The notes beneath the pieces are model-generated. The model ran no database searches. It had not been told where the DNA came from and saw only the letters and a program-made list of their open reading frames with translations. A program made the position numbers and the translations under genes. Shown piece after piece: positions 10,450 to 40,789 of a stretch of 49,365 nucleotides of DNA. Location of the stretch: the NCBI GenBank assembly GCA_036270895.1, contig DATBBS010000609.1, positions 1 through 49,365 of the forward strand, written 5' to 3'. The stretch's first letter is position 1, and every line of letters begins with the position of its first letter. This stretch comes from Xanthobacteraceae bacterium. GTDB lineage: Bacteria > Pseudomonadota > Alphaproteobacteria > Rhizobiales > Xanthobacteraceae.

Positions 10450-11892
10450 ATGAGCTCACAAGACCCGGGACTGCCGCTCAAGTCCGCGCACACGTCCGAC
10501 GTCACAATCCCGGGGGTGGGATCACTCGGCTTCCTCCTGTGCGTGCTGGTGCCGCTCGCCCTGTGGTTCGCACCGCTCGGCCTGGCGCCGCAGACCCAGC
10601 ACGGCCTGGCGATCGTGTGCTTCATGGTGGTGGCGTGGATGACGCAGGCCATGGAGTTCGCGCTCGCCGGCTTCGTCGGCTGCTTCCTGTTCTGGGCGCT
10701 CGGGGTCGTGCGTTTCCCCGTGGCATTCAGCGGCTTTGCGAACGACACGCCCTGGTTCCTGTTTGCCGCCTTGCTGCTCGGGCGCGTCGCCAGCAAGTCG
10801 GGCCTCGCCCGCCGGCTCGCCTATTCGGTGATGCTGCGGGTGGGCTCGACCTATTCCAGGATCCTGCTCGGCCTCATCATGACCGACTTCATCCTGACCT
10901 TCATCGTGCCGTCCGGGCTCGCGCGGGTCGCGATCCTCGCCACCATCTCGCTCGCCTTGATCGAGGCGTTTCAGGCGCAGAAGGGCAGCAACATCGCCCG
11001 CGGCATGTTCCTGATCATGACCTACACCGGCAACCTGTTCGACAAGATGATCCTGGCCGGCGCCGGCTCGATCACGGCGGCTGGCGCGATGGCGAAATTC
11101 GGCAATGTCGAGGTGTTGTGGGGCCAGTGGCTGCTCGCTTTCCTGCCCGCCAGCATCATCACGGTGCTGATCGCGTGGCGCCTGACCCTGTGGCTCTATC
11201 CGCCCGAGCAGGCGGCGCTGACCGGCGGCACGGATTTTTTCCGCGACGAGCTCGTCAAGATGGGTCCGTGGTCGTGGCTGGAGAAGAAGGCCGCGCTGCT
11301 CGTCGGCGTCGCCATCCTGCTGTGGGTCACCGACTTCCTGCATCATCTGCCGCCCGCGATGATCGCGCTCGGCGTCGGCCTGTTCGCGCTGCTGCCGCCC
11401 GTCGGCATTCTCGACGAAGACGACATGCGCAACGTGAACTACATGCCGGTCTTCTTCGTCGCCGCCGCCATCAGCATGGGGAACGTGCTCGAAGCCACCA
11501 AGGGCCTCGACGTGCTCACCACGGTGTTCCTTACCAGGGCCGAGCCCTTCCTCGGCAATATCTTCAGCACGACCTTCGTCATGTATTGGACGGGGTTCAT
11601 CTATCACTTCTTTCTCGCCAGCGAGATCTCGATGCTGGGCACGTCGATGCCCCTGGTGATGCAGTTCGCCAAGTCGCACGACATGAACGCGCTGATGCTC
11701 GGCCTGTTGTGGACCTTCTCGGCCGGCGGCAAGCTGTTCGCCTACCAGTCGGGCGTGCTGGTGCTGGGCTATTCCTACGGCTACTTCGAGGCCCGCGACC
11801 TCGTGCGCATCGGCGCGCTGCTCACCCTGGCGGAGTTCTTCATCCTGCTGCTGCTGGTGCCGTTCTACTGGCCGTTGATCGGGATTTATTGA
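10450..11892 (+). CDS. DASS/SLC13-type (ArsB/NhaD superfamily) anion permease
   Basis: 480 aa, with 12 or more hydrophobic segments. The internal repeat architecture and motifs resemble citrate/sulfate-type symporters. Its last 60 codons recur as a ghost copy at 14579-14755. Confidence 0.7.
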   Translation: MSSQDPGLPLKSAHTSDVTIPGVGSLGFLLCVLVPLALWFAPLGLAPQTQHGLAIVCFMVVAWMTQAMEFALAGFVGCFLFWALGVVRFPVAFSGFANDTPWFLFAALLLGRVASKSGLARRLAYSVMLRVGSTYSRILLGLIMTDFILTFIVPSGLARVAILATISLALIEAFQAQKGSNIARGMFLIMTYTGNLFDKMILAGAGSITAAGAMAKFGNVEVLWGQWLLAFLPASIITVLIAWRLTLWLYPPEQAALTGGTDFFRDELVKMGPWSWLEKKAALLVGVAILLWVTDFLHHLPPAMIALGVGLFALLPPVGILDEDDMRNVNYMPVFFVAAAISMGNVLEATKGLDVLTTVFLTRAEPFLGNIFSTTFVMYWTGFIYHFFLASEISMLGTSMPLVMQFAKSHDMNALMLGLLWTFSAGGKLFAYQSGVLVLGYSYGYFEARDLVRIGALLTLAEFFILLLLVPFYWPLIGIY

Positions 11893-11904
11893 GACGGGCC
11901 GGCT

Positions 11905-11979
11905 GTCATTGCGAGCGCAGCGAAGCAATCTCGCTGCCTCGGCAAGCGTAGCCCGGATGAAGCGAAGCGAAATCCGGGG
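11905..11979. repeat. REP-like elements, family A arm (11905-11930) plus family B unit (11943-11979)
   Basis: gtcattgcgagcgcagcgaagcaatc matches the arms at 304-387. caagcgtagcccggatgaagcgaagcgaaatccgggg matches 13477-13512. Confidence 0.8.
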
Positions 11980-14490: not shown

Positions 14491-14578
14491 CGTGGTCTCC
14501 CGCACCACACACACTCTCTCTTCCATTGGCGAACGCGGTCGGCATCGGGAGAAGCAGGTCCGCGAGGGTTTTCCTCCG

Positions 14579-14755
14579 TGGGCCTTTTCGGCCGGCGGCA
14601 AGCCGGTCGCCTGCCAATCGGACGCGCCGGTGCTGGGCTATTCCTACGGTTTCGAAGCCCGCGACCTCGTCCGCATCGGGGCATTGGTCCCGCCGGCGGA
14701 TTTTTTCATCCGGCTGCTGCTCGTTCCGTTCTACTGGCCCTTGATCGGGATCTAC
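14579..14755 (+). pseudogene. ghost copy of the 3' end (last 60 codons) of the DASS permease gene at 10450..11892
   Basis: The ghost reads WAFSAGGKPVACQSDAPVLGYSYGFEARDLVRIGALVPPADFFIRLLLVPFYWPLIGIY. The live copy reads WTFSAGGKLFAYQSGVLVLGYSYGYFEARDLVRIGALLTLAEFFILLLLVPFYWPLIGIY. By manual alignment 47 of 60 positions are identical, with one single-codon gap and no frameshift. The stop is lost (TAT TGA has become TAC CGA). Nothing transporter-like precedes the ghost. Confidence 0.85.
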
Positions 14756-14834
14756 CGAGGGAGGACGGCCGCCATGAGCCTATGCGGCTGTCCTTGAAGC
14801 GGAGGCCGCCAAGCCGGCCTCGCCCTGCCGACTG

Positions 14835-18474: not shown

Positions 18475-18488
18475 GCCGGGGCCCGCGG

Positions 18489-19442
18489 ATGCTGCTCTAC
18501 ACCCTCAAGCGCCTTCTCTACGTGACGCCGGTCGCGATCGGCGTCAGCGTCGTGTGCTTCCTGCTCGTCCACATCACGCCGGGCGATCCGCTTTCCGCGA
18601 TCCTGCCGTCGGACGCGCCGCTCGAGCTGCAGATGCAGCTGCGGGCGGTGTACGGCTTCGATAAGCCGCTGCCGGTGCAATACGGCCTGTGGTTCTGGAA
18701 GGTGCTGCACGGCGATCTCGGCACCTCCATCGCGACCGGCCGGCCGGTCGCGGCGGAGGTCGCGCGCGCGGTCGGCAACACGCTGATCCTCGCCACGGTG
18801 GCGACGCTGATCGGCTTCACGCTCGGCACCTTCTTCGGGTTCGTCGCCGGCTATTTCCGCGATTCCTGGCTCGACAAGCTCGCCTCGGCGGTGTCCGTGC
18901 TCGGCGTCAGCGTGCCGCATTATTGGCTCGGCATGGTATTGGTCATCATCTTCTCGGCCCAGCTCGGCTGGCTTCCGCCGACGGGGGCGGGGCCGGGCGG
19001 ATCGAGCAACTGGCGGCCCGATCCCGAGCATCTGAGCTACATCATCCTGCCCGCTCTCACCATGTCGGTCATTCCCATGGGCGTGATCGCGCGCACCGTG
19101 CGGGCGCTGGTCGCCGACATCCTCAATCAGGAATTCGTGCAGGCGCTGCGCGCCAAGGGCCTCGGCGAATACGGGGTTTTCCGCCACGTCGTCACCAATG
19201 CGGCACCGACCGCGCTCGCCGTCATGGGGCTGCAGCTCGGCTATCTGCTCGGTGGCTCGATCCTGATCGAGACCGTGTTTTCCTGGCCGGGCACCGGCTT
19301 CCTGCTCAACGCCGCCATCTTCCAGCGCGACCTGCCGCTGCTGCAGGGCACCATCCTGGTGCTGGCGATGTTCTTCGTCGCGCTCAACCTTGCGGTCGAC
19401 GTCATCCAGACCGCGCTCGACCCGCGCATCGAGCGGGCCTGA
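18489..19442 (+). CDS. ABC transporter permease (DppB/OppB-like)
   Basis: Based on ORF 18426..19442, with the start at ATG 18489 (MLLYTLKRLLYVTPVAIGVSVVCFLLVHITPGDP). The EAA-loop region is present. Confidence 0.9.
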   Translation: MLLYTLKRLLYVTPVAIGVSVVCFLLVHITPGDPLSAILPSDAPLELQMQLRAVYGFDKPLPVQYGLWFWKVLHGDLGTSIATGRPVAAEVARAVGNTLILATVATLIGFTLGTFFGFVAGYFRDSWLDKLASAVSVLGVSVPHYWLGMVLVIIFSAQLGWLPPTGAGPGGSSNWRPDPEHLSYIILPALTMSVIPMGVIARTVRALVADILNQEFVQALRAKGLGEYGVFRHVVTNAAPTALAVMGLQLGYLLGGSILIETVFSWPGTGFLLNAAIFQRDLPLLQGTILVLAMFFVALNLAVDVIQTALDPRIERA

Positions 19443-19445
19443 GCC

Positions 19446-20342
19446 ATGGTGGTGCTCTCCGACATCCGCATAGACGCCCCCGCCACGGTGCCGCTGCGCG
19501 CCGGCCGCGGCTATTGGGCGAGCGTGCTGCAGCGGCTCCTGCGCGATCCGGTTGCGGTGGCCGGCGGCTGCATCATCCTCGCCATCGTGCTCGCCGCGAT
19601 CTTCGCGCCCTGGATCGCGCCGGGCGACCCCTACAAGGGCGCGATGTTGCGCCGGCTCAAGCCGATCGGCGATGCGCTCTATTGGCTCGGTTCCGACGAG
19701 CTCGGCCGCGACATGCTCACCCGCCTGATTTATGGCGGGCGGCTGTCGCTGTTCATGGGCGTGCTGCCGGTCGCCTGCGCCTTCGCGATCGGCTCGACGC
19801 TCGGCATCTTTGCCGGCTATGTGGGCGGCTGGGTCAACATGACGGTCATGCGCGTGATCGACGTGTTCTATGCCTTTCCATCTGTGCTGCTCGCGATCGC
19901 ACTGTCGGGCGCGCTCGGCGCCGGCATAACCAATGCGGTGGTGTCGCTCACCATCGTGTTCGTCCCGCCGATCACGCGCGTGGCCGAAAGCGTCACCACT
20001 CAGATCCGCACGCGCGATTACGTCGAGGCGGCGCGGGTGAGCGGCGCCGGCGCCTTCACGATCATCCGAATCCACGTGCTCGGCAACGTGCTGGGGCCGA
20101 TCTTCGTCTATGCCACCAGCCTGATCAGCGTCTCAATGATCCTCGCCTCCGGCCTCTCGTTTCTCGGCCTCGGCTCGAAGCCGCCGGAGCCCGAATGGGG
20201 CCTCATGCTCAACACGCTGCGCACCGCAATCTACGTCCAGCCCGCGGTCGCGGCGCTGCCCGGCGTGATGATCTTCATCACCTCGATCTCGTTCAACCTG
20301 CTGTCGGACGGGCTGCGTTCCGCCATGGAGGTGCGCTCGTGA
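19446..20342 (+). CDS. ABC transporter permease (DppC/OppC-like)
   Basis: 298 aa. The N-terminal region [33 protein letters not shown] is typical of DppC-type permeases. It starts 4 nt after the preceding stop. Confidence 0.9.
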
Positions 20343-21394
20343 GCGCCGTCCTCGAGGCCTCGGGCGCCGAGCGCGATCGCGGCGGACCGGCCCAGCCGCT
20401 GCTCTCGGTCAAGGGGCTGGTGAAGCATTTCGGCGGCCGGCGCGACTGGTCCGGAAAGCTGCACGGCATGGTGCGCGCCGTCGACGGCGTCGACCTCGAC
20501 GTCTTCAAGGGCGAGACGCTCGGCATCGTTGGGGAATCAGGCTGCGGCAAGTCGACGATCGCGCGGCTCGTGATGCAGATCATCCGGCCGGACGCCGGCG
20601 CGATCCTGTTCGACGGCGAAACGGTCGGTTCTGCCGCGCTCAAGCTGCAGGACTACCGGCGCGAGGCGCAGATGGTCTTTCAGGACAGTTACGCCTCGCT
20701 CAACCCGCGCCTCACGGTCGAGGACACCATCGCATTCGGTCCCCGCGTGCATGGCGCGGGCCGTCGGGCCGCGGTCGCGCGCGCCCATGACCTGCTGCAG
20801 CGCGTGGGCCTCGGACCCGAACGCTTCGCCGGGCGCTATCCGCACGAGCTCTCCGGCGGCCAGCGCCAGCGCGTCAACATCGCGCGCGCGCTCGCGTTGC
20901 AGCCGCGGCTTCTGATCCTCGACGAGGCCGTATCGGCGCTCGACAAGTCGGTCGAAGCCCAGGTGCTCAACCTGCTGCTCGACCTCAAGGCCGAATTCGG
21001 CCTCACCTACATGTTCATCTCGCACGATCTCAACGTGGTGCGATTCATGTCGGATCGCGTGATGGTGATGTATCTCGGCAAGGTCGCCGAGGTCGGGCCG
21101 TCGGACGTGATCCTGAAGGCGCCGCGCCATCCCTACACCGCGGCGCTGCTCGCCTCGATGCCGTCCATGGACCCGGACAACCGCACCCGGGAGGCGCCGC
21201 TGTTCGGCGACCCGCCCAACCCGATCGATCCGCCGCCCGGCTGCCGCTTCCACACCCGCTGCAAGTTCGCGGCGCCGATCTGCTCGGCGCGCGAGCCGGG
21301 CCTCGGCGCCGATTTCGGCGCCGACATGGCGCATCGCGTCGCCTGCCACATGACGGATCCGTCGTCCGGCCATCCCGCCGCGGTCGCGGCGTAA
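20339..21394 (+). CDS. ABC transporter ATP-binding protein (DppF/OppF-like)
   Basis: This is the last 351 codons of the artefactual 901-aa ORF 18689..21394. The GTG start at 20339 overlaps the permease stop (GTGA). It has Walker [10 protein letters not shown], signature LSGGQRQR, Walker B LLILDE and a C-terminal oligopeptide-type Cys motif. Confidence 0.9.
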
Positions 21395-21404
21395 CGGAGC
21401 GCGC

Positions 21405-22397
21405 ATGAGCGAAGCGATCGTCGACGTGCAGGGACTGACCGTGGAGTTTCCCGGCCGGCCGCCGGTGCGCGCGGTCGGCGGCGTCGATCTGACGCTCAAG
21501 CCGGGCGAGGTGCTGGCGCTGCTCGGCGAGTCGGGCTCCGGCAAGAGCGTGACGTTGCGCGCCCTGATGCGCCTGCTGCCGAAACGCGCCGCCATCGGCG
21601 GAACGGTGCGCGTTGACGGACGCGACGTGCGGGCGATGCGCGCGCCCGAGCTTTCGAGCTATCGCGGGTCGATCATCGCGATGATCTTCCAGGAGCCCGG
21701 CCTCGCCTTCGATCCGGTCTATTCGGTGGGCGACCAGATCGCGGAGGCGGTGGTGCGCCATGCGGGCGTGTCCCGGGCGGAGGGCAGGGCCCGTGCGCTC
21801 GAATTGTTCGAGCGGGTGCGCATTCCCTCCGCGGCGCGGCGGCTCGACAACTATCCGCACGAGATGTCGGGCGGAATGCGCCAGCGCGCCATGATTGCGC
21901 TCGCGCTATCGTGCCGCCCGAAAGTGCTGCTCGCCGACGAGCCCACGACCGCGCTCGATGCGACCGTGCAGATCCAGATCCTGCTGCTGCTGCGCGAGCT
22001 GCAGCGCGAGCTCGGCCTCGCCGTCATCTTCGTGACGCACGACATCGGGGTGGCGACCGAGATCGCCGACCGCATCGCCGTGATGTATGCGGGCCGCATC
22101 GTCGAGACCGGCTCCTGTGGCGCGGTGATACGCGCAAGCGCGCATCCCTATACGCAGGGTCTGCTGTCGTCGCGGGCCGGCCAGGCCTTCGAACGCGGCG
22201 GTCGCCTGACGGCGATCCCCGGTGCGCCACCGGACCTTTCGCGGCTCATGGCCGGCTGCGCGTTTGCGCCGCGCTGCGCCAAGGTCCACGATGCGTGCCG
22301 CAACGGATTGCCGGCGGAAATCCCGGTCGGCCCGGGGCATGTGGCGCGCTGCGTCCTGCTCGCAAAGGCGCCGCTCGCGACCATGCCGGGCGTGTGA
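21405..22397 (+). CDS. ABC transporter ATP-binding protein (DppD/OppD-like)
   Basis: 330 aa with Walker A GESGSGKS, signature MSGGMRQR and Walker B LLADEPTTALD. GGAG lies upstream. Confidence 0.9.
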   Translation: MSEAIVDVQGLTVEFPGRPPVRAVGGVDLTLKPGEVLALLGESGSGKSVTLRALMRLLPKRAAIGGTVRVDGRDVRAMRAPELSSYRGSIIAMIFQEPGLAFDPVYSVGDQIAEAVVRHAGVSRAEGRARALELFERVRIPSAARRLDNYPHEMSGGMRQRAMIALALSCRPKVLLADEPTTALDATVQIQILLLLRELQRELGLAVIFVTHDIGVATEIADRIAVMYAGRIVETGSCGAVIRASAHPYTQGLLSSRAGQAFERGGRLTAIPGAPPDLSRLMAGCAFAPRCAKVHDACRNGLPAEIPVGPGHVARCVLLAKAPLATMPGV

Positions 22398-22418
22398 GCC
22401 TGCCTGAACGGCCCCTAT

Positions 22419-23543
22419 ATGGAAGGGAGCCGGAACAAATCGGTCCGACGCATGAGTGACCCGCTGACCCGCGTGACGACCCGCATCGCCTATATGGCGA
22501 CCCAGTTGCCTCGCCTCGCCTGGTATGCGGGTCACGGTTACGTCATGCGCCAGCTCGCGGCGCAAGCGCGGCGCCAAAGCGGCGTGCCGCAGCGGGACGG
22601 CGCGACTACGCCGGCGCGATCGGCGAACGCGCCCGTGCCGAACCAACGGCGCATCTACGCCGATTTGGGAGACCTGCTGGCGCAAGACCTCGCCAATATC
22701 GAAGCCGGCCTCTATCCGCTTCCCGCTGATCATGACGGCGGCTTGATGACGCGCCTTCGCCGCTCGCGGCTGTTCTTCGAGGACCTGCCGGCGGTTCATC
22801 GCCGGCGCCAACGCAACGCCTATCGCGAGGTGTTGACCGAGGCGATGGCGGGCAAGCGGCCGAAATATTACCTGCAGAACTTCCATTACCAATCCGGCGG
22901 CTGGCTGACCGCGGATTCGGCCGACCGCTACGACACGCAGGTCGAGGTGCTGTTCAAGGGCAGCGCCAATGCGATGCGGCGCCAGGCGCTGCCGCCGCTC
23001 CATGAGATCTTCGCCGGGCGCGATCAGCGCAGATTGCGGTTGCTCGACATCGCCTGTGGGACGGGCCGGTTCCTCGATTTCGTCAAACAGACGTGGCCGC
23101 GGCTTTCTGTGGTCGGGCTCGATCTATCGGAGGCCTACTGCCGGCATGCGCGCCATCACCTGAACCGCTGGTCGCGCGTCGATCTCGTCGTCGGCAACGC
23201 GGAAGCGCTTCCCGCGCCGGACAACAGCTTTGACGCGGCGACATGCATCTTCACGTTCCACGAGCTGCCGCCGCAGGCGCGCCGCAACGCGATCCGGGAA
23301 TGCGCCCGCGTTCTCAAACCGGGCGGACGTCTGGTGCTGCTCGATTCGTTGCAACGCGGCGACGAGCCGGACTACGACGGGACGCTCGACCGGTTTCCGC
23401 AGAATTATCACGAGCCCTATTACCGCAGCTATATCGGCGAGGATTTTGCCGCGATCGCGCGGCGGTTCGGACTGTTGCACAAACGCGACGTCAAGGCGTT
23501 CGTCTCCAAGGTGATGGTGTTCGACAAGCCGCATAGGTCCTGA
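22419..23543 (+). CDS. class I SAM-dependent methyltransferase
   Basis: It has the SAM motif LLDIACGTGRF and the post-I/II blocks NSFDAATCIFTFHELP and VLKPGGRLVLLD. The start is uncertain (ATG 22419 or 22452). Its 3' end recurs in decayed form at 27629-27850. Confidence 0.8.
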   Translation: MEGSRNKSVRRMSDPLTRVTTRIAYMATQLPRLAWYAGHGYVMRQLAAQARRQSGVPQRDGATTPARSANAPVPNQRRIYADLGDLLAQDLANIEAGLYPLPADHDGGLMTRLRRSRLFFEDLPAVHRRRQRNAYREVLTEAMAGKRPKYYLQNFHYQSGGWLTADSADRYDTQVEVLFKGSANAMRRQALPPLHEIFAGRDQRRLRLLDIACGTGRFLDFVKQTWPRLSVVGLDLSEAYCRHARHHLNRWSRVDLVVGNAEALPAPDNSFDAATCIFTFHELPPQARRNAIRECARVLKPGGRLVLLDSLQRGDEPDYDGTLDRFPQNYHEPYYRSYIGEDFAAIARRFGLLHKRDVKAFVSKVMVFDKPHRS

Positions 23544-23689
23544 CGGGGCGATCAAGCCCGCGATTCAGCATCCGCTGCGACACCCGCTTTGCGGCAAGAT
23601 CCGTTAAATCGGGGCAAGTCCGGCGAAATCGTTTCCACCGGGACGGTCCAAATAAAATTCCGCTCTCAAAGTGCAGCGAGGTGCACCCA

Positions 23690-25489
23690 ATGGGACGCGG
23701 CTTGATCAAACGTGCTCCGCTCGCGCCGTGTGCGCGCGTGACCTTCTCCCTCATCGGGCTGCTGTCGGCCACGGCGCTGTCGCCGGCGCAAGCCCAGTCC
23801 GATCCGGCGGCGCAGCCCGGCGCCTGTCCCGGCCCCAATGCCGGCATCACGCTGCCGGCGGGATTTTGCGCGACGGTGTTCGCCGACAATATCGGCCATG
23901 CGCGTCATCTCGCTGTTGCGCCCAACGGCGTCGTCTATGTCAACACCTGGAGCGGAAGCTACTACCGAAACGATACGCCTCCGGCCGGGGGCTTTCTGGT
24001 GGCGCTGCAGGACACCCATGGCGACGGGCACGCTGACCGCGTCACCCGCTTCGGCCAGACCCGCGAGCAGGGCGGCACCGGCGGCACCGGTATCGCGCTC
24101 CACAACGGGGCGCTTTATGCCGAGGCGGGCGACCGGATCCTGCGCTACGCCTTGGGGCAGGGCGCAACCGTTCCCGACCAGACCCCCGACGTGATCGTTT
24201 CGGGATTGCCGCTTACGGGCGATCATCCCATGCATCCCTTTGCGATCGACGCGCAGGGCGCCCTCTATGTCGACGTCGGCTCCGCCACCAACTCGTGCCA
24301 GGTCGCGAACCGCATGCCCGCCTCGCCGGGGCATCAGCCCTGCACCGAGCTCGAGATGCGCGCCGGCATCTGGCGCTACGACGCCAACCGCACCGGCCAG
24401 CGCTTCTCCCCGGCGGAGCGCTTCGCAACCGGGTTGCGCAACGGCGAGGGCATCGGCTTCGATTCGGCCGGCAGGATCATTGCGACCCAGCACGGGCGCG
24501 ATCAGCTGCGCGAGAACTTTCCCCGGCTCTATACGCCGCAGCAGGGTGCCGATGAGCCGGCGGAGGAATTGGTGCAGCTCGAGCGCGGCGGCGATTATGG
24601 CTGGCCCACTTGCTATTTCGACCTGAGGCGCAACAAGCTCGTCCTCGCCCCCGAATACGGCGGCGATGGCGGCAACGCGGTCGGCCCCTGCGCGCAGAAA
24701 CGCGCGCCGATCGCGGTCTTCCCGGGTCATTGGGCGCCGAATGGCCTTGCGATCTACAACGGGGCGCAGTTTCCCGCCGCCTACCAGGGCGGCGCCTTCA
24801 TCGCCTTCCATGGCTCCTGGAATCGGGCGCCGTTTCCTCAGGGCGGCTACAACGTGGTGTTCCAGCCGCTCAGCGAGGGCAGGGCCAGCGGTCCTTACGT
24901 CGTTTTCGCCGACGGCTTTGCGGGCGCCGTCAAGGAACCCGGTCGCGCCGCGCATCGCCCGTCCGGTGTCGCCGCCGGCCCCGATGGAGCGCTTTATATC
25001 TCGGATGACCAGCGCGGGCGGATTTGGCGTGTGACCTATCACGGGCCTGCCACGGTCGCCGTCGCGGCGGCGCCGTCGCCGTCCTCGCGCGCCGACAATT
25101 CCTCGCCCGGCGACGCCGTTCCGCCCGAGGGCATCCATCCGGATGCCGGCGCGCAAGCCGCCGCCCTGACGGTGCCGCCCGGGGCGACGCGCGACGAGGT
25201 CGCGCTCGGCGGCCGCATCTTCCACGGTGACGTCGCGAGTGCGCCATGTGCGGGCTGTCATGGAACGGATGCCACCGGCAGCCCGCTCGGCCCGGACCTT
25301 ACCAGCGGTACGTGGCTGTGGGGCGACGGCAGCCTCGCCGCGATCGAGAAGACCATCGCCGACGGCGTGCCGCACCCGAAGAAATACGGCTCGCCGATGC
25401 CGCCGATGGGCGGCGCAGCGTTGTCTTCCTCGCAACTGACGGCGGTCGCCGCCTATGTGTGGGCCCTGGGCCACGGGAGCGGCAAGTAG
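23690..25489 (+). CDS. PQQ-dependent sugar (sorbosone/glucose) dehydrogenase-like beta-propeller fused to a C-terminal c-type cytochrome
   Basis: Based on ORF 23681..25489, with ATG 23690 preceded by GAGGTG. It has a signal peptide, propeller blocks (HPMHPFAID, GLRNGEGIGFD, ATQHGRD, GGDYGWP, PSGVAAGPDGALYISDD) and a haem motif CAGCH with a downstream MPPMG. Confidence 0.75.
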   Translation: MGRGLIKRAPLAPCARVTFSLIGLLSATALSPAQAQSDPAAQPGACPGPNAGITLPAGFCATVFADNIGHARHLAVAPNGVVYVNTWSGSYYRNDTPPAGGFLVALQDTHGDGHADRVTRFGQTREQGGTGGTGIALHNGALYAEAGDRILRYALGQGATVPDQTPDVIVSGLPLTGDHPMHPFAIDAQGALYVDVGSATNSCQVANRMPASPGHQPCTELEMRAGIWRYDANRTGQRFSPAERFATGLRNGEGIGFDSAGRIIATQHGRDQLRENFPRLYTPQQGADEPAEELVQLERGGDYGWPTCYFDLRRNKLVLAPEYGGDGGNAVGPCAQKRAPIAVFPGHWAPNGLAIYNGAQFPAAYQGGAFIAFHGSWNRAPFPQGGYNVVFQPLSEGRASGPYVVFADGFAGAVKEPGRAAHRPSGVAAGPDGALYISDDQRGRIWRVTYHGPATVAVAAAPSPSSRADNSSPGDAVPPEGIHPDAGAQAAALTVPPGATRDEVALGGRIFHGDVASAPCAGCHGTDATGSPLGPDLTSGTWLWGDGSLAAIEKTIADGVPHPKKYGSPMPPMGGAALSSSQLTAVAAYVWALGHGSGK

Positions 25490-25644
25490 GGCCGCGAGAT
25501 CGGCTGGCCGGCCGGCGGGTGGAGCAGGGTTGGCGGGGGAATTGACGCAAGATCGAGACAATCGCGGCAAGCGAGCCCAAACCCTCGCGAAACGCATGGC
25601 TACATCAAGCCTGTCGAATTCTACCAAACCGAAAGGAACAGGCC

Positions 25645-25881
25645 ATGCGTTACATTTCGAAAGCTACCTATGCGATCGCCGTCATCGCGGCGGTTGCGGT
25701 GACCGCTTCGGCGGCCGATGCGCGCTCCTACCGTGCGTATGACGGTGCCTATAATTCTGTTGGCGGCGGTTTCGAGCGCTCCAACCGCAGCAGCATTCCC
25801 TACGACGCGGGCGGCGTTGCCTACAGCCGCGGTCAGCGGGGCCAGGACGACTCGAGCGACTTCCAGCTGCAGGGCCGGTAA
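25645..25881 (+). CDS. small secreted protein of unknown function (78 aa)
   Basis: AAAGGAA lies 7 nt upstream. The signal peptide is MRYISKATYAIAVIAAVAVTASAADA. The mature part is rich in Gly, Ser, Arg and Tyr and ends in DFQLQGR. A strong terminator follows. Confidence 0.55.
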   Translation: MRYISKATYAIAVIAAVAVTASAADARSYRAYDGAYNSVGGGFERSNRSSIPYDAGGVAYSRGQRGQDDSSDFQLQGR

Positions 25882-25962
25882 TCGGCGGCGCCGTTGCGCC
25901 TCCTGACTCGTAAAGTCCCCCAGGGTGGGATCCAGCGCTTCGTCCCCGGCGCCCCGCCCGAA

Positions 25963-25990
25963 CCCCGGCCTGCTCGGCCGGGGTTTTTTT
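25963..25990 (+). terminator. Rho-independent terminator
   Basis: The stem ccccggcc and ggccgggg forms a perfect 8 bp with loop tgctc, followed by a T7 run. Confidence 0.75.
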
Positions 25991-26186
25991 GCGTCGCGCC
26001 TGGCGCATGTCCCGATCCCGCGCGCCAGTGTGCCGCAAGATCGGATCGATCGCCGCAATCCAGGAGAAGCGAATTCGCCGGCGCATCGACATGTTCGGGT
26101 GAGCACAGGAGTGTCGCATGTCGCCGACGGATGTTCTCGGGCGGCGAGTCGGATCGTCGGGCGGTGCGCCGTGAAAGGAGATCGTC

Positions 26187-26456
26187 ATGTTGCGTAGGAC
26201 CATGGTCGTTCTCGTGGTTGCGCTTGGTCTGGGAAGCTTTGGGCTTTCCGCCAGCGCGTTTGCCCGCGCCAGCGGCCTCGAAGAAAGTGGTTTCGGCGGC
26301 GATCACGCGGCCAGCGGCTTCGACGGGCGTCGCGATGGCGGCAGCTACCGCGCTGAAAGTGGCGGCGTCAGCGGCTTGCGTCGCGGAACCCACGGGCGCC
26401 CCGACGTGTGGGGCCACTGGGGCGCCTATGACGGGCCCATGATCCCTCCGATTTGA
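26187..26456 (+). CDS. small secreted Gly-rich protein of unknown function (89 aa)
   Basis: AAAGGAGA lies 6 nt upstream. The signal peptide is MLRRTMVVLVVALGLGSFGLSASAFA. The mature part is rich in Gly, Asp and Arg and ends in DVWGHWGAYDGPMIPPI. Confidence 0.55.
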   Translation: MLRRTMVVLVVALGLGSFGLSASAFARASGLEESGFGGDHAASGFDGRRDGGSYRAESGGVSGLRRGTHGRPDVWGHWGAYDGPMIPPI

Positions 26457-26508
26457 ACCGCCTTTGCCCGATCACGCGTGCATTGAACGCAGACCCACAG
26501 GAGCCGCC

Positions 26509-27627
26509 ATGAACCTCTCGAGACGCGGCATTCTGATCGCGGGCGGGAGCGCCTTGCTCGCGGCCGAAGCCGTCACGCGGGCGTCAGCCCAGCAGCGCCC
26601 TGACGGCATGGACGCCATGCCGGGGCCCGAGGAGATGCAGGTGGCGCAACGGGGCGGCCTCTACGCCAACCTGCACGACCCGAACATCACCGAGTTGCCG
26701 CCGGACGCGTTCGCGCAACGCTTCACCTTCTCTCCGGCTCCGAAAGCCGATCCGTCCGGCGCCTGGTCCGAAGCGGCGCCCTTGGCGGTGCCGCGCAGCG
26801 AGATGGCATGGGCGACGGCCGAGAACGATCGCATGCACGTCATCGGCGGCTATGCGGCGCAGCAGGTGGCGCGCCGCTACCACGACGTCTTCGATGCGCG
26901 CACGGGAGAGTGGCAACAGGCGGCGCCGATTCCGCGCGGCGCCAACCACATCGGCGTCGCGGCCGATGCCGGGGTCATCTATGCGTTCGGAGGCTTTGTC
27001 GAGCAGAACCGCATCGCGGTCCCGGATTGCTACGCCTATGTGGTCGCCGACGACCGCTGGCACGCCATCCGGCCGCTCTCGCGCGGTTCGCGCGGCGCGA
27101 TCTCGGTGGTCGCCTTCAACGGGCGGATCCACGCCATCGGCGGACGCGACGTGCGCTCGGTCGACTGGCACGAGGCGTATCACCCGGATGCCGATACCTG
27201 GGAAACCCTTGCGCCGGTTCCCGGGCCTCGCGATCACACGGCGGCGGTCGTGGTCGCGGGATCGATCTCGGTCGTCGGCGGCCGGATGGACACCTTCGAT
27301 TTCAACACCGGCATGCATGTCGTCTACGACGTCGGCGCGGACCGCTGGGAGGAGCGCGCCCCGATGCCGACGCCGCGCTCGGGCCATGGCGGCGTTCTTT
27401 ACCGCGGCAAATTGTTCTGCATGGGCGGCGAGGGCACGCGCCGCGTGTTCGGCCAGACCGAAGCCTATGACCCGCAGGCGGACAGCTGGCAGGCTTACGC
27501 CGCCATGAGGACGCCGCGCCACGGCATGGGCGCCGCCGTGGTGGGTGATGCCATTCACGTCGCCGGGGGCGGCCCCATGAACGGCGGCGCCTTCCAGACC
27601 TCCGTGCACGAGGTGTTCAGGGTCTGA
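26509..27627 (+). CDS. Kelch-repeat beta-propeller protein with twin-arginine (Tat) signal
   Basis: Based on ORF 26464..27627, with ATG 26509 preceded by AGGAG. The Tat-like N-terminus is MNLSRRGILIAGGSALLAA. Repeated units of the form h..GG...........yd...d.W are present (VIGGY, AFGGF, AIGGR, VVGGR, CMGGE, VAGGG). Confidence 0.75.
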   Translation: MNLSRRGILIAGGSALLAAEAVTRASAQQRPDGMDAMPGPEEMQVAQRGGLYANLHDPNITELPPDAFAQRFTFSPAPKADPSGAWSEAAPLAVPRSEMAWATAENDRMHVIGGYAAQQVARRYHDVFDARTGEWQQAAPIPRGANHIGVAADAGVIYAFGGFVEQNRIAVPDCYAYVVADDRWHAIRPLSRGSRGAISVVAFNGRIHAIGGRDVRSVDWHEAYHPDADTWETLAPVPGPRDHTAAVVVAGSISVVGGRMDTFDFNTGMHVVYDVGADRWEERAPMPTPRSGHGGVLYRGKLFCMGGEGTRRVFGQTEAYDPQADSWQAYAAMRTPRHGMGAAVVGDAIHVAGGGPMNGGAFQTSVHEVFRV

Positions 27628-27628
27628 C

Positions 27629-27850
27629 CTTCATCCGGTTCCGCTGCGCCGCACGCACGCCGCAACGCCGTCGGGAATGCGCCCGCATTCTCAAACCGGG
27701 CGAATGATAAACCGGGGGAATGATTACGAGTCCTATGACGGTAGCTATATCGGGGAGGGCTTTTGTGCGCGCCGCGACTCCGACCGATGCGCGAATGCGA
27801 GGTCAGGCGTTCGATGCACGGAATGCCTCGCTGCCGCGAGGTCACAAATC
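27629..27850 (+). pseudogene. decayed ghost copy of the 3' end of the methyltransferase gene at 22419..23543
   Basis: cgggaatgcgcccgcattctcaaaccgggcg (27672-27702) matches 23295-23325 at 30 of 31 nt. The downstream NDYESYDGSYIGEGF corresponds to NYHEPYYRSYIGEDF in the live gene. Relative to the live copy it has a 1-nt deletion, in-frame TGA TAA and an internal deletion of about 70 nt. The end coordinates are approximate. Confidence 0.75.
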
Positions 27851-27929
27851 AGCCAATGTTTGACGGCTCGATAGCAGGCGATGTGGCCGCGCGCTGTGTG
27901 GTGGCGGCAATCGGTTGCAGGGACATCCT

Positions 27930-28283
27930 ATGATGCCGACACACATGCGAAGCCTTGCCATCATGGCACTGGTCGGATTCTGCATTCAGGCGCATGCGCA
28001 GGACCGGTGCCCGGAATTGACCCGGCTGCGCGGCGAGGCCGCGGAGGCCTTGAAGGAGACGAGAACCGGTCCGGCGTCGGTGCGCTGTGAATCATATAGC
28101 CGTTTGTCGAAGGCGCAGAGCGCCATGGTGCAATACGCCAGTGACCACCGCGACTCCTGTGACATTTCCGTCTCTTCGCTGAGCGAGCTGGAGAGGAATC
28201 ACCAAGACGCCGAAAAGGCGCGCGACAATGTCTGCGCGGGCCGTCCTGCTCGCCCATTTCCTGCGGACATCATTCAACGCTGA
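27930..28283 (+). CDS. small secreted Cys-containing protein of unknown function
   Basis: Based on ORF 27915..28283. ATG 27930 lies downstream of AGGGA, with an alternative ATG at 27945. The signal peptide is MRSLAIMALVGFCIQAHA, and the mature part has four Cys. Composition is AT-richer than the surroundings. Confidence 0.45.
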   Translation: MMPTHMRSLAIMALVGFCIQAHAQDRCPELTRLRGEAAEALKETRTGPASVRCESYSRLSKAQSAMVQYASDHRDSCDISVSSLSELERNHQDAEKARDNVCAGRPARPFPADIIQR

Positions 28284-28393
28284 GACAATCGGACGGTTGT
28301 GGCCGTGTCTCAAAGGATGTCTGCGAATTCGTGACCACGGCTGAAAATTCGGTTGGGCTGCTGCCTGCCGGATCGACACGGAAATCACGGCTG

Positions 28394-28417
28394 CCCGGAG
28401 ATCGTCGGATCTCCGGG
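28394..28417. terminator. perfect 10-bp hairpin between convergent genes (possible bidirectional terminator)
   Basis: The sequence is cccggagatc-gtcg-gatctccggg. There is no clean T-run on either side, so its function is uncertain. Confidence 0.4.
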
Positions 28418-28425
28418 TCGCCCAG

Positions 28426-29532
28426 TCAGTGCTTGATCATCCAAGTCTGGAATTCCCGGAAGAGCTGCTCCATGTCTGCGGCGGATTGTTTCGGCGCTCT
28501 CTCGCTCATGAACCGCCTGAATTCCGCCTCTTGACCTTTGGTCTCGCCTGCGCGCCAATTTCTGAGCCATTCCTCTGCGGCGGCAAAACGAGTCCATCCC
28601 GGAACCGTTGCGGCAATGTTCGCCGCCTTCCAAAGTGGGCTGCGCGGCGGTTTTTGGAACTCACTGGTCCTCGAGAAGAATGCATCGACGAATTTTGCAG
28701 TCCGTTGGTACCGTACCGTGTCTTTTGGCCAGTTATACGAAATGAGGACGGTGCTCGCCGCGATCGTGCTGATGCTCTCGTCCTTCCCGATCAGCGCGGG
28801 ATAGTCGTCGTTTCCAATCGCACCGGGCAGATAGTTCGCTCGCAGCGGCCCCTCGTCCGGTACGGTCACGAACCGCAAGCCCCACTCCGGCTTGACGGTC
28901 GCGAATGCCGGCACCGGAGCCGGGCACGAACATATCGTCGCATCTATCTCGCCACGCCGGAGTTTGTCCAACGCGTCTCCCTGCGGCAGGTATAACTCCT
29001 GCACCTGGACCCCGAGGGTCTTGAATATTCCCGGAACGAATTGCGCGGTTGCGCTGCCCTTGTTGTTGAAGTTGACCTTTTTTCCGTTCAGATCCCTGAT
29101 GTCTTTCGCGCCCCCGCGCGCAAGGATCTGCAGCGGGTTGGGAAAGAGCGGTGCGATATAAGTCAGCTGCTGCGCCAGGTTTGGCCCGAGCTTGCCGCTG
29201 GTCTTCAGGTAGTTCATGGCCTCCGCGGTGGTCAGCGCGAGGTCGATGTTTCGCAAGTAAAGGACATCCTGCACATTCTCGACCGCGGCGCCGCCGTCGA
29301 CGGAGAGCACGCGCAGATCATCTCCTCCGACCACCAGCGCGATGTCGTTGGCAAGCTGGTTGAAGGTGGCGCCGGGCTGCCCGCCCATGAGAAACATGAC
29401 GTTCTCATTTACCTTTTGTCTTAGCTCGCGCGGGGGGGCCGTCTGGGATGCGACGCGGTCATAGGAGGGGAGAGATAAAACAAGCGCAAAGACAAAAACC
29501 GATGCCCACTTGAAAACCGATGCCCACGTCAT
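28426..29532 (-). CDS. periplasmic solute-binding protein, TAXI/NMT1-like fold (orphan)
   Basis: 368 aa with an N-terminal signal/anchor. The pattern FLMGGQPGATFNQLANDIALVV..LRVLSVDGGAAVENVQDV..NIDLAL resembles TAXI-family TRAP receptors. No transporter membrane genes are adjacent. Codons are AT-richer than the background. Confidence 0.5.
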   Translation of the reverse strand: MTWASVFKWASVFVFALVLSLPSYDRVASQTAPPRELRQKVNENVMFLMGGQPGATFNQLANDIALVVGGDDLRVLSVDGGAAVENVQDVLYLRNIDLALTTAEAMNYLKTSGKLGPNLAQQLTYIAPLFPNPLQILARGGAKDIRDLNGKKVNFNNKGSATAQFVPGIFKTLGVQVQELYLPQGDALDKLRRGEIDATICSCPAPVPAFATVKPEWGLRFVTVPDEGPLRANYLPGAIGNDDYPALIGKDESISTIAASTVLISYNWPKDTVRYQRTAKFVDAFFSRTSEFQKPPRSPLWKAANIAATVPGWTRFAAAEEWLRNWRAGETKGQEAEFRRFMSERAPKQSAADMEQLFREFQTWMIKH

Positions 29533-29772
29533 GGCCCCTCCTCGTCGAATTTCTCAGGCTTTGAAGCCCCCACCCGCATACTAGCGATTGGCGACTTTGG
29601 TGGGAAGGTATCCAAACGCCACCCGCAATACCCGCCCGCAATGGGGGACGCCAGGTTTTCAGCGCAAGTCTTCAGCGCAACGCCGTCTTCGGGTGGTCCG
29701 GTCGTGCCCGACTGCCGGTTCAATGTGCGGGAATCGGTGGCCTCATGCGGCCATTCCTCGTTCGCCGTCGCG

Positions 29773-30357
29773 CTATGGATCGCGCCGGCTCTTTTGCGTC
29801 ACTGCCGCGAACTCGTTGCCGAGAACGCCCATCATCACGTCGTCGTGCCATTTCCCATCCACATGGGCGGATTCCCTTTCGCGCCCCTCGACGACGAATC
29901 CGCACTTTTCGTAGGCGCGGATCGCCCGTGTGTTGAACTCCAACACACGGGCGGAGATGCGGTGCAAGTCGAGCACATCGAATGCGTATCGTAACACCAG
30001 CCTTATGGCTTCGGTGCCGAGCCCCTGGCCCAGTCGTGTCTTGTCTGCGATGCCGACGGCGAGGACCGCCCGTTTGTCCCAGAAATCGACGCGATCGAGC
30101 CTGATCTCCCCGATCAAGGCGCCCGCGTCGATGATCCACGCATGATCGTGGTCCAGCAGGCGCTGCACCCAACGCTCCGCCTCCTCCTCGGTCATCGGCC
30201 GCGCGTTCCTGCTGTCGCCGCCATACATGCGCACGATGTCGGGGTCGTTTCCGAGCTTGCGGCGTGCTTCGATATCTTCCGCGCGCGCCCGTCGCAGCGA
30301 CACCCGCTCGCCGTTGAGATCCGGCACCGGCATCTTCGTCATGTCGGTACCGCTCAC
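29773..30357 (-). CDS. GNAT-family N-acetyltransferase (RimJ/RimL-like)
   Basis: The GTG start at 30357 overlaps the upstream gene's stop (GTGA). The motif-A region GQGLGTEAIRLVLRYAF and the ..N.RAIRAYEKCGF block are present. Confidence 0.75.
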   Translation of the reverse strand: MSGTDMTKMPVPDLNGERVSLRRARAEDIEARRKLGNDPDIVRMYGGDSRNARPMTEEEAERWVQRLLDHDHAWIIDAGALIGEIRLDRVDFWDKRAVLAVGIADKTRLGQGLGTEAIRLVLRYAFDVLDLHRISARVLEFNTRAIRAYEKCGFVVEGRERESAHVDGKWHDDVMMGVLGNEFAAVTQKSRRDP

Positions 30358-31118
30358 TGCTTGGTCGCCACGATGGAGTCCTGGAAGACCTCATAGCTGC
30401 GAACGGATCGCCACGTGCCCTCGCGCACCGCGTCGACCCGCAGTCCGTAACGGTCGAGCAGGCGCAGCAGCCAATTCTTCCGACACGCGATCCCTTGTTC
30501 GGGATGCTCGGGACAGAACGTCAGGCAAGGTCCGATGGGATGCCGGAAATCGAAGATCGTCGCTCCGCGCGCAACGGCGGCCTCTCCTTCCTCGTCGAGG
30601 AGAAACGCCGTGACGTAACAGGCGCCACCCGGCTTGATGACGCGCGCGAGCTCCGAGACGTATCGCTCGATTTCATCCGGCATCATATGGGTGAAGACCG
30701 AAGAAACGATCGCGGCGTCGAAGCTGCCGGGCGCATAAGGGAAGGAAAGCGCCGCCGCCTTGATCGACCCCGCGGGATTCTGATCCGGCGAATAGACGTC
30801 CAGCCGTGTGAAGCGGAAATTATGCGCGCGCGTCTGCAGATGGCGCTGGCACCACGCAACCATGTCGGCCGACACATCGAAGCCGTCATAGCTTCCGCGC
30901 GGGTGAAGGTGTTTGATGAAAGCGCGCGCCAGCCGGCCGCAACCACATCCGACCTCCAGGACCGACGCGTCCGGCCGGATGTTGCACAAATCCATGATCT
31001 CGGCGGCCTGTTGATCGCCGCTTCGCTCGAAAAGACCGGCATCCGAGAAGGGACCAACCCTCACGCGCAGATGTTCGGGAGGGACAGGACGCTCCGTCGT
31101 TGGTGCTTGATCGGACAT
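30354..31118 (-). CDS. class I SAM-dependent methyltransferase
   Basis: Based on ORF 30354..31199, with the start at ATG 31118. The SAM motif VLEVGCGCGRLA and the block VIKPGGACYVTAF are present. Confidence 0.7.
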   Translation of the reverse strand: MSDQAPTTERPVPPEHLRVRVGPFSDAGLFERSGDQQAAEIMDLCNIRPDASVLEVGCGCGRLARAFIKHLHPRGSYDGFDVSADMVAWCQRHLQTRAHNFRFTRLDVYSPDQNPAGSIKAAALSFPYAPGSFDAAIVSSVFTHMMPDEIERYVSELARVIKPGGACYVTAFLLDEEGEAAVARGATIFDFRHPIGPCLTFCPEHPEQGIACRKNWLLRLLDRYGLRVDAVREGTWRSVRSYEVFQDSIVATKQ

Positions 31119-31256
31119 GCGCTTGAAAAAACGGCCGGCCCGCGCACTTGGTTCCTTGGTCCGGCACGGACCGGCAGAAATTCCTCGGCCCCGCCACACG
31201 GCGGAAAAGCGTGCGGCCGCGGAATATCATTTGGGATGCCTGAAGGAGCGCTTTGC

Positions 31257-40712: not shown

Positions 40713-40789
40713 TGGCGCGCCCGAAGAGATTCGAACTCCTGACCCCCAGATTCGTAGTCTGGTGCTCTATCCAGCTGAGCTACGGGCGC
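40713..40789 (-). tRNA. tRNA-Arg (anticodon ACG), CCA encoded
   Basis: The reverse complement is GCGCCCGTAGCTCAGCTGGATAGAGCACCAGACTACGAATCTGGGGGTCAGGAGTTCGAATCTCTTCGGGCGCGCCA. It folds as a cloverleaf with a 7-bp acceptor stem, a D arm GCTC/GAGC, an anticodon stem CCAGA/TCTGG with loop CTACGAA, and a T loop TTCGAAT. Confidence 0.95.

Follow-up and report, generated by a model that had tools for sequence, protein, structure and literature searches.

The analysed window, a stretch of 49,365 nucleotides from a Xanthobacteraceae bacterium, contains an intact methyltransferase gene (MT) and, 4.1 kb to its 3' side, a decayed copy of the 3' end of the same gene, referred to here as the ghost. We put the probability at roughly one half that this ghost is the scar of a recombinase-free, homology-anchored addition of DNA, and not part of a working element. 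Scars of this kind are known, and as a single locus this is an ordinary recombination scar. The arrangement had been described in a first-pass annotation as an islet, a term that suggests a discrete mobile element. Its outline of an intact MT, co-oriented cargo and a dead, 5'-truncated copy stands, but the cargo is not one unit (see contigs L166 and L164 below), and a recombination scar agrees better with the evidence.

The intact gene (22452..23543, + strand) encodes a class I SAM-dependent methyltransferase of 363 residues (Pfam Methyltransf_25/11/12, Ubie_methyltran), with orthologues of 62–93% identity at 160 loci. Its start at 22452 is the one called on the source contig Ga0376656_0000036; an alternative ATG is located at 22419. 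The segment that recurs as the ghost, 23249..23503 (+ strand, approximately codons 266–351), pairs with 27629..27813 (+ strand), the two copies being 4.38 kb apart. Local alignment of 23200–23600 against 27600–27900 gave a score of 97, compared to a mean of 20.1 for 300 shuffled controls (sd 2.5, maximum 30). In addition, the ghost matches a DNA profile of MT 3' ends, built from 159 loci, in two pieces (27647–27703, E 8e-4; 27718–27813, E 3e-5). The earlier claim that the MT 3' end recurs downstream is thereby borne out. The ghost had been taken to extend from 27629 to 27850 and to follow directly on the Kelch gene; the start and the position are correct (Kelch stop codon at 27625–27627, ghost from 27629, i.e. 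2 nt after it), but detectable homology ends at 27813. No significant similarity was found past this position, the MT stop included (p > 0.2). An apparent TGACGG..GCGAT match past the MT stop was rejected as an extension of the ghost since it was not significant, and the ghost tail has no significant similarity to the native MT tails of relatives. Past 27813 it is too decayed to be shown as a native tail.

The ghost is 185 bases long, lacks codons 1 to ~265 of the MT, and consists of two parts, 27629–27705 and 27718–27813. A stretch of ~70 nt (23329–23398 in the intact gene) is deleted internally, with ~12 nt standing in its place. Frameshifts, several small indels and an in-frame TGA TAA at 27705–27710 confirm that the copy is dead, as was noted before. 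The sequences NDYESYDGSYIGEGF and NYHEPYYRSYIGEDF, read from the window, parallel each other. The 31-nt block (23295–23325 and 27672–27702) indeed has a single mismatch and no further occurrence in the window, and among 175 fetched loci it is found only within MT orthologues or their ghosts, which rules out a dispersed repeat. It lies 43 nt inside the ghost, off its edge, and in orthologues no other stretch of the gene is as conserved. By hand calculation, 14% divergence would give ~4.4 mismatches over the block, with a probability of ~0.07 for one or fewer; the block does not stand out statistically within the ghost. A second SAM methyltransferase gene in the window (30354–31115, − strand) was rejected as the source of the ghost, as the protein identity is only ~35%.

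Over 168 ungapped positions, the ghost is 85.7% identical to the window's own MT, 85.1% to that of L023, 83% to those of L084–L087, and 72–79% to those of L088–L098, and its differences are distributed 12/5/7 over the three codon positions. An origin through chance similarity, a dispersed repeat or metagenome mis-assembly is already refuted. Only the short length of the exact block speaks for it, and against it stand the alignment score and profile E-values given above, the confinement of the block to MT orthologues, and the presence of an identical ghost and junction in two further contigs (L173, L174) that were assembled independently, from other samples, by which an assembly artefact can be dismissed.

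At the 3' end of the intact gene, conservation with all orthologues ends after GTGTTCGACAAG, and the blastn matches of relatives all end at 23524–23533. The region 23528..23546 (+ strand) holds a lineage-specific tail (PHRS*) and the left cargo junction. The five closest relatives (L023, L084 and L085–L087) have a common, different tail (GCGCT..CGC.ATAAGCCCATG). No mosaic breakpoint is visible within the intact MT, as sliding identity to nine relatives is flat.

Two cargo units can be distinguished between the copies, based on Pfam domains and on matches to related contigs. Cargo unit 1 (23582..25996, + strand) contains a GSDH/TrAA12 beta-propeller dehydrogenase fused to cytochrome c (23690–25489, +; Pfam GSDH, Cytochrom_C, Cytochrome_CBB3), a small protein of 78 residues (25645–25881, +) and a terminator-like hairpin (~25958–25996). 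Contig L166 has only this unit, the GSDH gene and the first small gene, in common with the window (23582–25491 at 87.6%, 25521–25996 at 78.5%) and is divergent on both sides, with REP elements and not an MT upstream; its homology starts at 23582 by blastn and at ~23547 by eye. Cargo unit 2 (26023..27627, + strand) contains a small protein of 84 residues (26202–26456, +) and a Kelch beta-propeller with a twin-arginine motif, SRRGIL (26509–27627, +; Pfam Kelch_1/6/3). The called start of the Kelch gene is 26509, and an alternative TTG start is present at 26464. Contig L164 has only this second unit in common (26023–26138 and 26152–27627 at 86–91%), with homology stopping exactly at the Kelch stop, and in L164 the unit sits across the tRNA-Arg/PAS-kinase block, on its other side. 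As one contig shares unit 1 only and the other unit 2 only, the 4.1 kb comprises not one cargo unit but two with separate histories, each of which related contigs carry in other surroundings.

In the closest relatives, L023 and L084 (~92% nucleotide identity), the MT stop is followed by ~80–100 nt, then by tRNA-Arg and by the sequence present in the window from 42810 onward. The same tRNA-Arg(ACG) stands 17 kb off in the window (40713..40789, − strand; ARAGORN, Rfam), and both relatives lack this 17-kb tract; therefore the ghost lies inside a variable tract of 17 kb. The GC profile drops from ~0.70 to ~0.60 exactly at the ghost. Right after it comes a lower-GC unit (~0.60; 27945..29532; GC profile, Pfam) with a 112-residue ORF (+) and a TAXI/NMT1_3 solute-binding protein (−). 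A protein search with NMT1_3 identified two 93%-identical contigs, L169 and L170, which share 28147–28324 and 28425–29665 with the window at 85–90%, are divergent on the GNAT side, and end at window-equivalent positions 28147 and 28268, short of the ghost. Strains in which the MT directly precedes the sequence now at ~27.85 kb onward, which the earlier reading would lead one to expect, were not encountered among ~160 MT loci (80 from genome contigs, 80 from metagenome contigs), L023 and L084 having tRNA-Arg there, and in none of these loci from other strains does the GSDH...Kelch cargo adjoin the MT. In line with the first-pass annotation, no recombinase was found by Pfam in any called gene between 23.5 and 43 kb; neither was a partial tRNA-Arg copy found in the window. 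The tRNA-Arg flank differs in every relative, with a defence-like island at this position in L164. The whole MT-to-tRNA-Arg interval is a recombination hotspot.

An MT-cargo-ghost order is present in three of the 75 loci with at least 5 kb of downstream sequence, and ghosts of MT 5' ends were not seen in any of these 75. Apart from the window, two other lineages (L098, L028) have their own such arrangement, with other cargo and other ghost start points. The repeats measure ~255 nt in the window, ~335 nt in L098 and ~117 nt in L028, with 80–86% identity, and the ghost 5' limits in the three lineages lie at profile positions ~100, 53 and 262, which argues against a single att site. The cargo of L028 is a single gene, encoding a dCache-PAS-GGDEF-EAL protein; among the larger cargo ORFs of L098 that were scanned, one encodes an FAD/BBE oxidase, and Pfam finds nothing in the rest. 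Domains of integrases, transposases or resolvases were not detected in the window cargo, the called genes of the 17-kb tract, the L028 cargo gene or the scanned L098 ORFs. The L098 ghost is an intact frame of 105 codons, ~85% identical to every MT of the clade, and its differences from the MT genes (8/9/30 against that of the window) are concentrated at third codon positions; it was therefore a functional allele of another genome while it diverged, and joined its present locus later. The difference between L098 and L096 does not correspond to a simple loop-out between the repeats.

The parallel case reported for 11710–14755 is also present in the window. The 3' end of an intact DASS/Na_sulph_symp permease gene (11709..11917, + strand; gene 10450–11892) recurs 2.9 kb downstream, after Rce1-like, GNAT and DLH genes, at 14578..14780 (+ strand; alignment score 221, repeat families D1/D2, gene calls). 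This permease ghost comprises the last 61 codons plus ~25 nt; 3 nt are deleted in it, and non-synonymous changes are numerous. When 1.66 Mb of related loci were compared with themselves by blast in search of short diverged direct repeats, most matches were REP-like or paralogues, and no clear further gene-end ghosts came up beyond L028, L098 and the permease case of the window.

From these observations we infer a crossover mechanism and an order of events. Cargo DNA would have been added right downstream of the MT by general (RecA-type) homologous recombination, for which the conserved 3' part of the gene served as homology anchor. The likeliest route would be that a circularised fragment, with cargo and ~250–300 bp of an MT 3' end, entered by a single (Campbell-type) crossover; a homologous join combined with an illegitimate one would have an equivalent outcome, and by either route the anchor segment would end up in two copies. 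The upstream copy would then complete the intact, selected MT and be the only one still under selection, and the downstream copy, without the 5' two-thirds, would undergo neutral decay through frameshifts, stops and the 70-nt deletion. A dedicated recombinase would be unnecessary. The present 4.1 kb would have been put together from two or more small gene units moving among different contexts in related genomes.

Support for such an addition comes from the direct copies on the same strand, complete upstream and 5'-truncated downstream, from the absence of integrase, transposase and resolvase domains in the genes scanned, and from the recurrence at the MT with different cargo and ghost 5' limits, including an L098 ghost that diverged as a functional allele elsewhere. 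The PHRS* tail differs from that of the five closest relatives, as expected if it came with the insert; the cargo units end sharply at gene ends and have 87–91% identity elsewhere; the GC drop falls exactly at the ghost; and the window holds a second example (11709 / 14578). Counting against it are the lack of an empty site and of a donor arrangement (MT-GSDH...Kelch outside this strain), the similarity of the window ghost to its own MT subclade with changes spread over codon positions, the flat identity of the intact MT, the ghost tail too decayed to read as native, and the L096/L098 pair, which is not related by simple loop-out.

Some of these points would be accounted for if the MT or its 3' part had been duplicated locally, by tandem duplication or replication template switching, with cargo entering or being reshuffled between the copies afterwards; the spare copy would then have lost its 5' part and decayed, and no foreign DNA would be required. 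The ghost is indeed nearest to the window's own subclade, its differences lack the third-position bias, as neutral local decay predicts, and the cargo divergence (87–91%) is similar to that of the MT from its relatives (89–92%), so that the cargo could be rearranged clade-native genes. We nevertheless regard an origin in situ as unlikely, since it requires several independent steps, thrice, each placing the ghost right after the last cargo gene, and since purifying selection clearly acted on the L098 ghost while it diverged, as an allele of its own. Moreover, at ~14% divergence, versus 4–8% among relatives in the same columns, the ghost would predate the subclade, and no ghost is found in L023 (10 kb downstream) or L084–L087 (0.4–2.5 kb available). 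Improbable, in our view, is a breakpoint relic, in which a long segment with the opp operon, MT and cargo was joined to a chromosome arm already carrying an MT next to the tRNA-Arg region, the join cutting the resident MT and leaving only its 3' end. Upstream synteny is as in L085–L087 (opp-MT, 84–93% over 14832–23532) and downstream synteny as in L023 and L084 (tRNA-Arg, then 42810–49365, 86%), but an ancestor of the order opp-MT-tRNA-Arg-D with one-sided lineage changes explains this without a hybrid. L050, with 3.3–7.2 kb of the window inverted and adjoining the MT, and the GC step at the ghost also favour a breakpoint; a left junction is, however, not visible in the 22 kb upstream, and the small size of the units and their gene-end limits argue for local events.

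Islands in tRNA genes and in the 3' ends of protein genes typically consist of an intact gene, cargo and a partial 3' repeat, and tRNA-Arg is a classical hotspot. The locus could accordingly be the remnant of a tyrosine or serine recombinase island in the MT 3' end or tRNA-Arg, which would have supplied a substitute gene end, the native one staying behind as attR, and whose integrase was later lost or acted in trans (a CIME-like satellite). We doubt this strongly. The MT-cargo-ghost order, the adjoining tRNA-Arg(ACG), the flank that differs in every relative and the defence-like island of L164 would all agree with it, but no recombinase gene is found over 23.5–43 kb, the window has no partial tRNA-Arg copy, and the ghost 5' limits differ across the three lineages. 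The homology consists of 117–335 nt of diverged sequence and not of a short exact core, and the 31-nt block is set 43 nt into the ghost, in what is the most conserved gene stretch anyway.

Gene gain in uncultured soil bacteria is mostly attributed to mobile elements. Here, small gene units seem to have been gained and rearranged beside a conserved gene; no mobility enzyme is seen, and the ghost is left as a datable fossil. If whole genomes were searched for ghosts, these could serve as markers of homology-anchored additive recombination, telling where, in which direction and roughly how long ago genes were gained. That the pattern recurs in three lineages at a single methyltransferase gene suggests that conserved genes at the borders of variable tracts are reusable landing pads. 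It is a long shot that these arrangements are homology-addressed, recombinase-free cassettes, looped out as a circle by RecA and re-entering, by a single crossover, any relative that has the same gene. If true, MT-cargo-ghost would be a self-renewing transport of small gene units among soil Xanthobacteraceae, which would explain the different cargo behind the same gene in three lineages, the second gene with the same pattern in the window, and the units of one or two genes with sharp gene-end limits and varied contexts but no mobility gene.

A literature search on islets of the MT-cargo-ghost type gave nothing specific. A transposon or IS-bounded composite element was rejected, as Pfam shows no transposase domain and the repeat search only the gene-end direct repeat. 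Integrase islands in tRNA or protein-gene 3' ends are alike in having an intact gene, cargo and a partial 3' direct repeat by a tRNA; here, in contrast, there is no integrase, no short exact core at the edges and no partial tRNA repeat, and the crossover position varies. An integrase-mediated island is thus strongly doubted: neither a recombinase in the called genes of 23.5–43 kb nor an att core in the repeats nor an empty site among ~160 MT loci was found, and L169 and L170 end before the ghost.

Arrays formed by C-terminal or 3'-end displacement are reportedly present in rhs, CDI and T6SS effector loci (Jackson et al. 2009; Poole et al. 2011; Kirchberger et al. 2017). In these arrays, as would be the case here, an incoming module anchored on conserved upstream sequence pushes the old 3' end downstream as an orphan, and different strains show such displacement repeatedly at one locus. 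However, those arrays consist of polymorphic toxin ends with immunity genes under selection, whereas here the same MT C-terminus occurs twice, the insert consists of unrelated metabolic and periplasmic genes (GSDH-cytochrome c, Kelch, small periplasmic proteins) and the orphan is dead; such an array was therefore rejected, only the geometry being common. A mechanism like homology-facilitated illegitimate recombination (HFIR) has been proposed for the rhs/CDI/T6SS displacement by its authors (Kirchberger et al. 2017, PMC5361080). HFIR itself (de Vries & Wackernagel 2002; Prudhomme et al. 2002; Meier & Wackernagel 2003; summarised in PMC3240628, PMC2884548) is similar in that a one-sided homology anchor allows non-homologous DNA to be added beside a conserved gene without a mobile-element enzyme. 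Its canonical products delete recipient DNA of about the size of the insert, and true HFIR in E. coli experiments gave insertion plus deletion (PMC3240628), whereas here the anchor is duplicated. The junction at 27627/27629 is too decayed to read the microhomology of 3–10 bp typical of HFIR, and a duplication is seen, not a deletion.

The closest likeness is to Campbell-type integration, as in E. coli conjugation experiments where a single crossover between a circular molecule and the chromosome duplicated 109–950 bp of the homologous locus (PMC3240628). There too, a direct repeat of part of the target gene flanks the insert, no site-specific recombinase is involved, and one copy is complete and one truncated when the fragment covers the gene end. 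The repeats of 117–335 nt found here are comparable in size, and the two copies in the window have the features of a Campbell-type scar: they are same-strand direct repeats of ~100 bp to 1 kb, one completing the gene and the other truncated, with neither terminal inverted repeats nor a short target-site duplication. In contrast to the experiment, the event here would be natural and old, in an uncultured soil Xanthobacteraceae, with a presumed circular intermediate; the downstream copy has decayed, and the cargo consists of chromosomal genes and not of a plasmid backbone.

The 3' end of the gene for a class I SAM-dependent methyltransferase (MT; 22452-23543, Pfam Methyltransf_25/11) is duplicated downstream of a Kelch gene, and this second copy, here called the ghost (27629-27813, plus strand), is a real feature of the DNA. 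The window belongs to JGI metagenome contig Ga0376656_0000036. In a local alignment of the MT 3' region with the DNA past the Kelch gene, 23249-23503 pairs with 27629-27813 at a score of 97, compared to 20.1 +/- 2.5 (maximum 30) in shuffles, which bears out the first-pass annotation in reading it as a copy of the MT 3' end. A DNA profile of 159 MT 3' ends also matched the ghost, in two pieces (E 8e-4 and 3e-5). A 31-nt block (23295-23325 and 27672-27702) differs at one position between the copies; it has only these two sites in the window, and in all fetched loci it is restricted to MT orthologues or their ghosts, which answers the objection that it could be a dispersed repeat. The ghost starts 2 nt past the Kelch stop codon, and past 27813 its homology to MT is not demonstrable. 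It is indeed dead, as had been proposed: TGA TAA stands in frame (27705-27710), about 70 nt are missing from its interior, and there are several small indels. Contigs from other samples, assembled independently, contain an identical ghost with the same junction.

Second copies of the MT 3' end, on the same strand and downstream of the gene, were found in two other lineages. In locus L098 (MT at 5163-6251) the copy of 335 nt (11492-11826) lies 5.3 kb downstream, past cargo that includes a FAD/BBE oxidase, and in locus L028 a copy of 117 nt lies 4.1 kb downstream of MT, about 40 nt past the stop codon of a lone gene for a 1297-aa dCache-PAS-GGDEF-EAL protein. Such 3'-end ghosts thus occur in three of the 75 loci whose downstream sequence extends to 5 kb or more, and no 5'-end ghosts were seen. 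The 5' limits of the ghosts are unequal in the three lineages (profile positions of about 100, 53 and 262). The L098 ghost is an open frame of 105 codons whose differences from the window MT show a third-position excess (8/9/30 by codon position), and its identity is about 85% to each MT in the clade, its own neighbour included; it is therefore a fragment of a different, once-functional MT allele. For the window ghost, identity over 168 ungapped positions amounts to 85.7% with its own MT, 85.1% with that of L023, 83% with those of L084-87 and 72-79% with alleles further away; its changes are distributed over all three codon positions (12/5/7), and it is dead and older than the L098 ghost. The related locus L096 is 98-99% identical to L098 across MT plus the initial 2 kb of the cargo, lacks L098 8231-11871 (the remaining cargo and the ghost) and is only 88% identical in the DNA downstream, which suggests a recombination boundary in preference to a simple loop-out. 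The parallel case noted earlier in the same window was recovered as well, as the end of a DASS permease gene (11709-11917) recurs at 14578-14780.

Between MT and ghost, the cargo genes encode a fusion of a GSDH/TrAA12 propeller with cytochrome c (23690-25489), a Kelch propeller (26509-27627) and two small proteins that matched no Pfam family. Pfam identified no recombinase domain in the cargo, in agreement with the original description, nor anywhere else in 23.5-43 kb. The rest of this tract holds regulators (a sigma-70 factor, LysR, TetR, response regulators and histidine kinases) and genes for a TAXI-type binding protein, a GNAT protein, a second methyltransferase, an MFS transporter, an SDR and a hydrolase. 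The order of MT, cargo and dead ghost stands as first described; the notion of a discrete 4.1-kb islet does not, as the GSDH and Kelch parts are found separately in relatives. The closest GSDH relative (L166, 87.6% nucleotide identity) has only 23582-25996 in common with the window, with REP elements instead of MT upstream of the GSDH unit. The closest Kelch relative (L164, 91%) has only 26023-27627 in common, the homology stopping exactly at the Kelch stop codon, and its Kelch unit lies to the right of a tRNA-Arg/PAS-kinase block that occupies 40.7-42.8 kb in the window. The 4.1 kb between the MT copies are therefore not one unit.

Among named homologues, those nearest to the Kelch protein come from Paraburkholderia and Caballeronia (73-78% amino acid identity), and also from Xanthobacteraceae, which indicates that the gene has been transferred between classes. 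Elements of a REP-like family, GCAAGCGTAGCCCGGATG.AGCG.AGCG.AATCCGGG, follow the stop codons of three successive genes between the DASS permease repeats (11942-11978, 12830-12866 and 13476-13512), and two further members of this family, arranged as an inverted pair, precede the GSDH unit in L166 (34-126). Such elements may be a source of short homology for the shuffling of gene units.

Comparison of about 160 fetched MT loci showed that conservation of MT ends about 15 nt ahead of the stop codon, and that the sequence beyond the conserved part differs in nearly every lineage. The closest relatives form two groups, L023/L084 (about 92% nucleotide identity) and L085-87 (about 90%). In L023 and L084, a convergent tRNA-Arg(ACG) gene comes no more than about 100 nt after MT, and past it the DNA is syntenic with window 42810-49365; L085-87 have the upstream opp operon in common with the window and differ downstream. 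In the window, 17 kb separate MT from tRNA-Arg(ACG) (40713-40789, minus strand); the ghost is 4 kb from the MT end of this tract. The predicted empty site, with MT directly followed by the post-ghost sequence, was not encountered among the roughly 160 loci, and the window holds no partial tRNA-Arg repeat.

The unit directly after the ghost, a 112-aa ORF and an NMT1_3 gene, has a GC content of about 0.60 versus about 0.70 on its left; L169 and L170 are 90% identical across the NMT1_3 unit, with genes on the GNAT side that differ from those of the window. The lower-GC block as a whole (27.9-30.3 kb; 0.58-0.62 versus about 0.70 to the left) starts at the ghost and comprises the 112-aa ORF, the TAXI/NMT1_3 binding protein and the GNAT gene. 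The second class I SAM methyltransferase (30354-31115, minus strand, 253 aa), 6.8 kb downstream of MT, is unrelated to the ghost, with about 35% identity to MT over the SAM-binding core.

In the window and in L164, unlike L023/L084, a low-GC PAS histidine kinase gene of about 2 kb (window 40984-42534) separates the tRNA-Arg gene from 42810, and in L164 the 3' flank of the tRNA is the site of a defence-like island (Pkinase-DUF4011-AAA_11/12 helicase, Fer4_12, AAA_2/AAA_5). In the distant relatives L010, L115 and L116 (68-69% amino acid identity to the window in MT, 57-60% in sigma), a convergent sigma-70 family gene directly follows MT; its counterpart in the window (31254-32168, minus strand) is 7.7 kb from MT, and the adjacency may be the older ancestral state. 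At the MT 3' end of L010, a Bradyrhizobium MAG, five tandem GACAAGCC copies (about 10323-10362) span the normal stop position, resulting in a longer reading frame. Homologues of window 3.3-7.2 kb are inverted directly upstream of MT in L050 (6045-10007; MT 66%), suggesting that one lineage or the other underwent an inversion whose breakpoint adjoins MT on its upstream side. The opp locus has three SBP_bac_5 paralogues in L086 (1-5200) versus two in the window (14832-18400), a further indel between close relatives.

The geometry consists of a same-strand gene-end repeat of 100-350 nt, with one copy complete and the other 5'-truncated, enclosing cargo without a recombinase and with variable boundaries. 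From this we infer the signature of general homologous recombination, by single crossover of a circular molecule. Such a molecule would enter next to MT, and the ghost would be the anchor segment duplicated by the crossover, persisting by chance only and decaying neutrally. We propose this reading because of the geometry, the duplications known from E. coli, and the tail of the intact window MT (PHRS*), which is unlike the tail common to its five closest relatives and fits with having come in with the insert. Neither a circular form nor a donor arrangement nor an empty site was seen. In-situ duplication is a possible source of the window ghost as well, since the ghost belongs to the MT subclade of the window itself. 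The intact MT, moreover, has no mosaic breakpoint inside it. The best reading of the ghost is as a recombination scar within a hypervariable MT-to-tRNA-Arg tract of small shuffled gene units.

As regards known systems, an integrase-mediated island does not fit, as recombinase, att core and constant crossover point are all missing, and none of the features of a transposon are present. The nearest experimental analogue is found in E. coli, where single crossover of a circular molecule duplicates 109-950 bp of the homologous locus, whereas canonical homology-facilitated illegitimate recombination gives insertion plus deletion (PMC3240628). Among natural systems, the closest is the 3'-end displacement of rhs/CDI/T6SS loci, in which arriving modules use the conserved upstream part as their anchor and the old 3' ends are shifted downstream to become orphans (PMC5361080); those loci encode polymorphic toxins and immunity genes, and the MT locus neither. 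The arrangement is a fresh example of an already known kind of event, of modest interest for the fact that the same gene has been hit in three lineages with mobility genes wholly absent.
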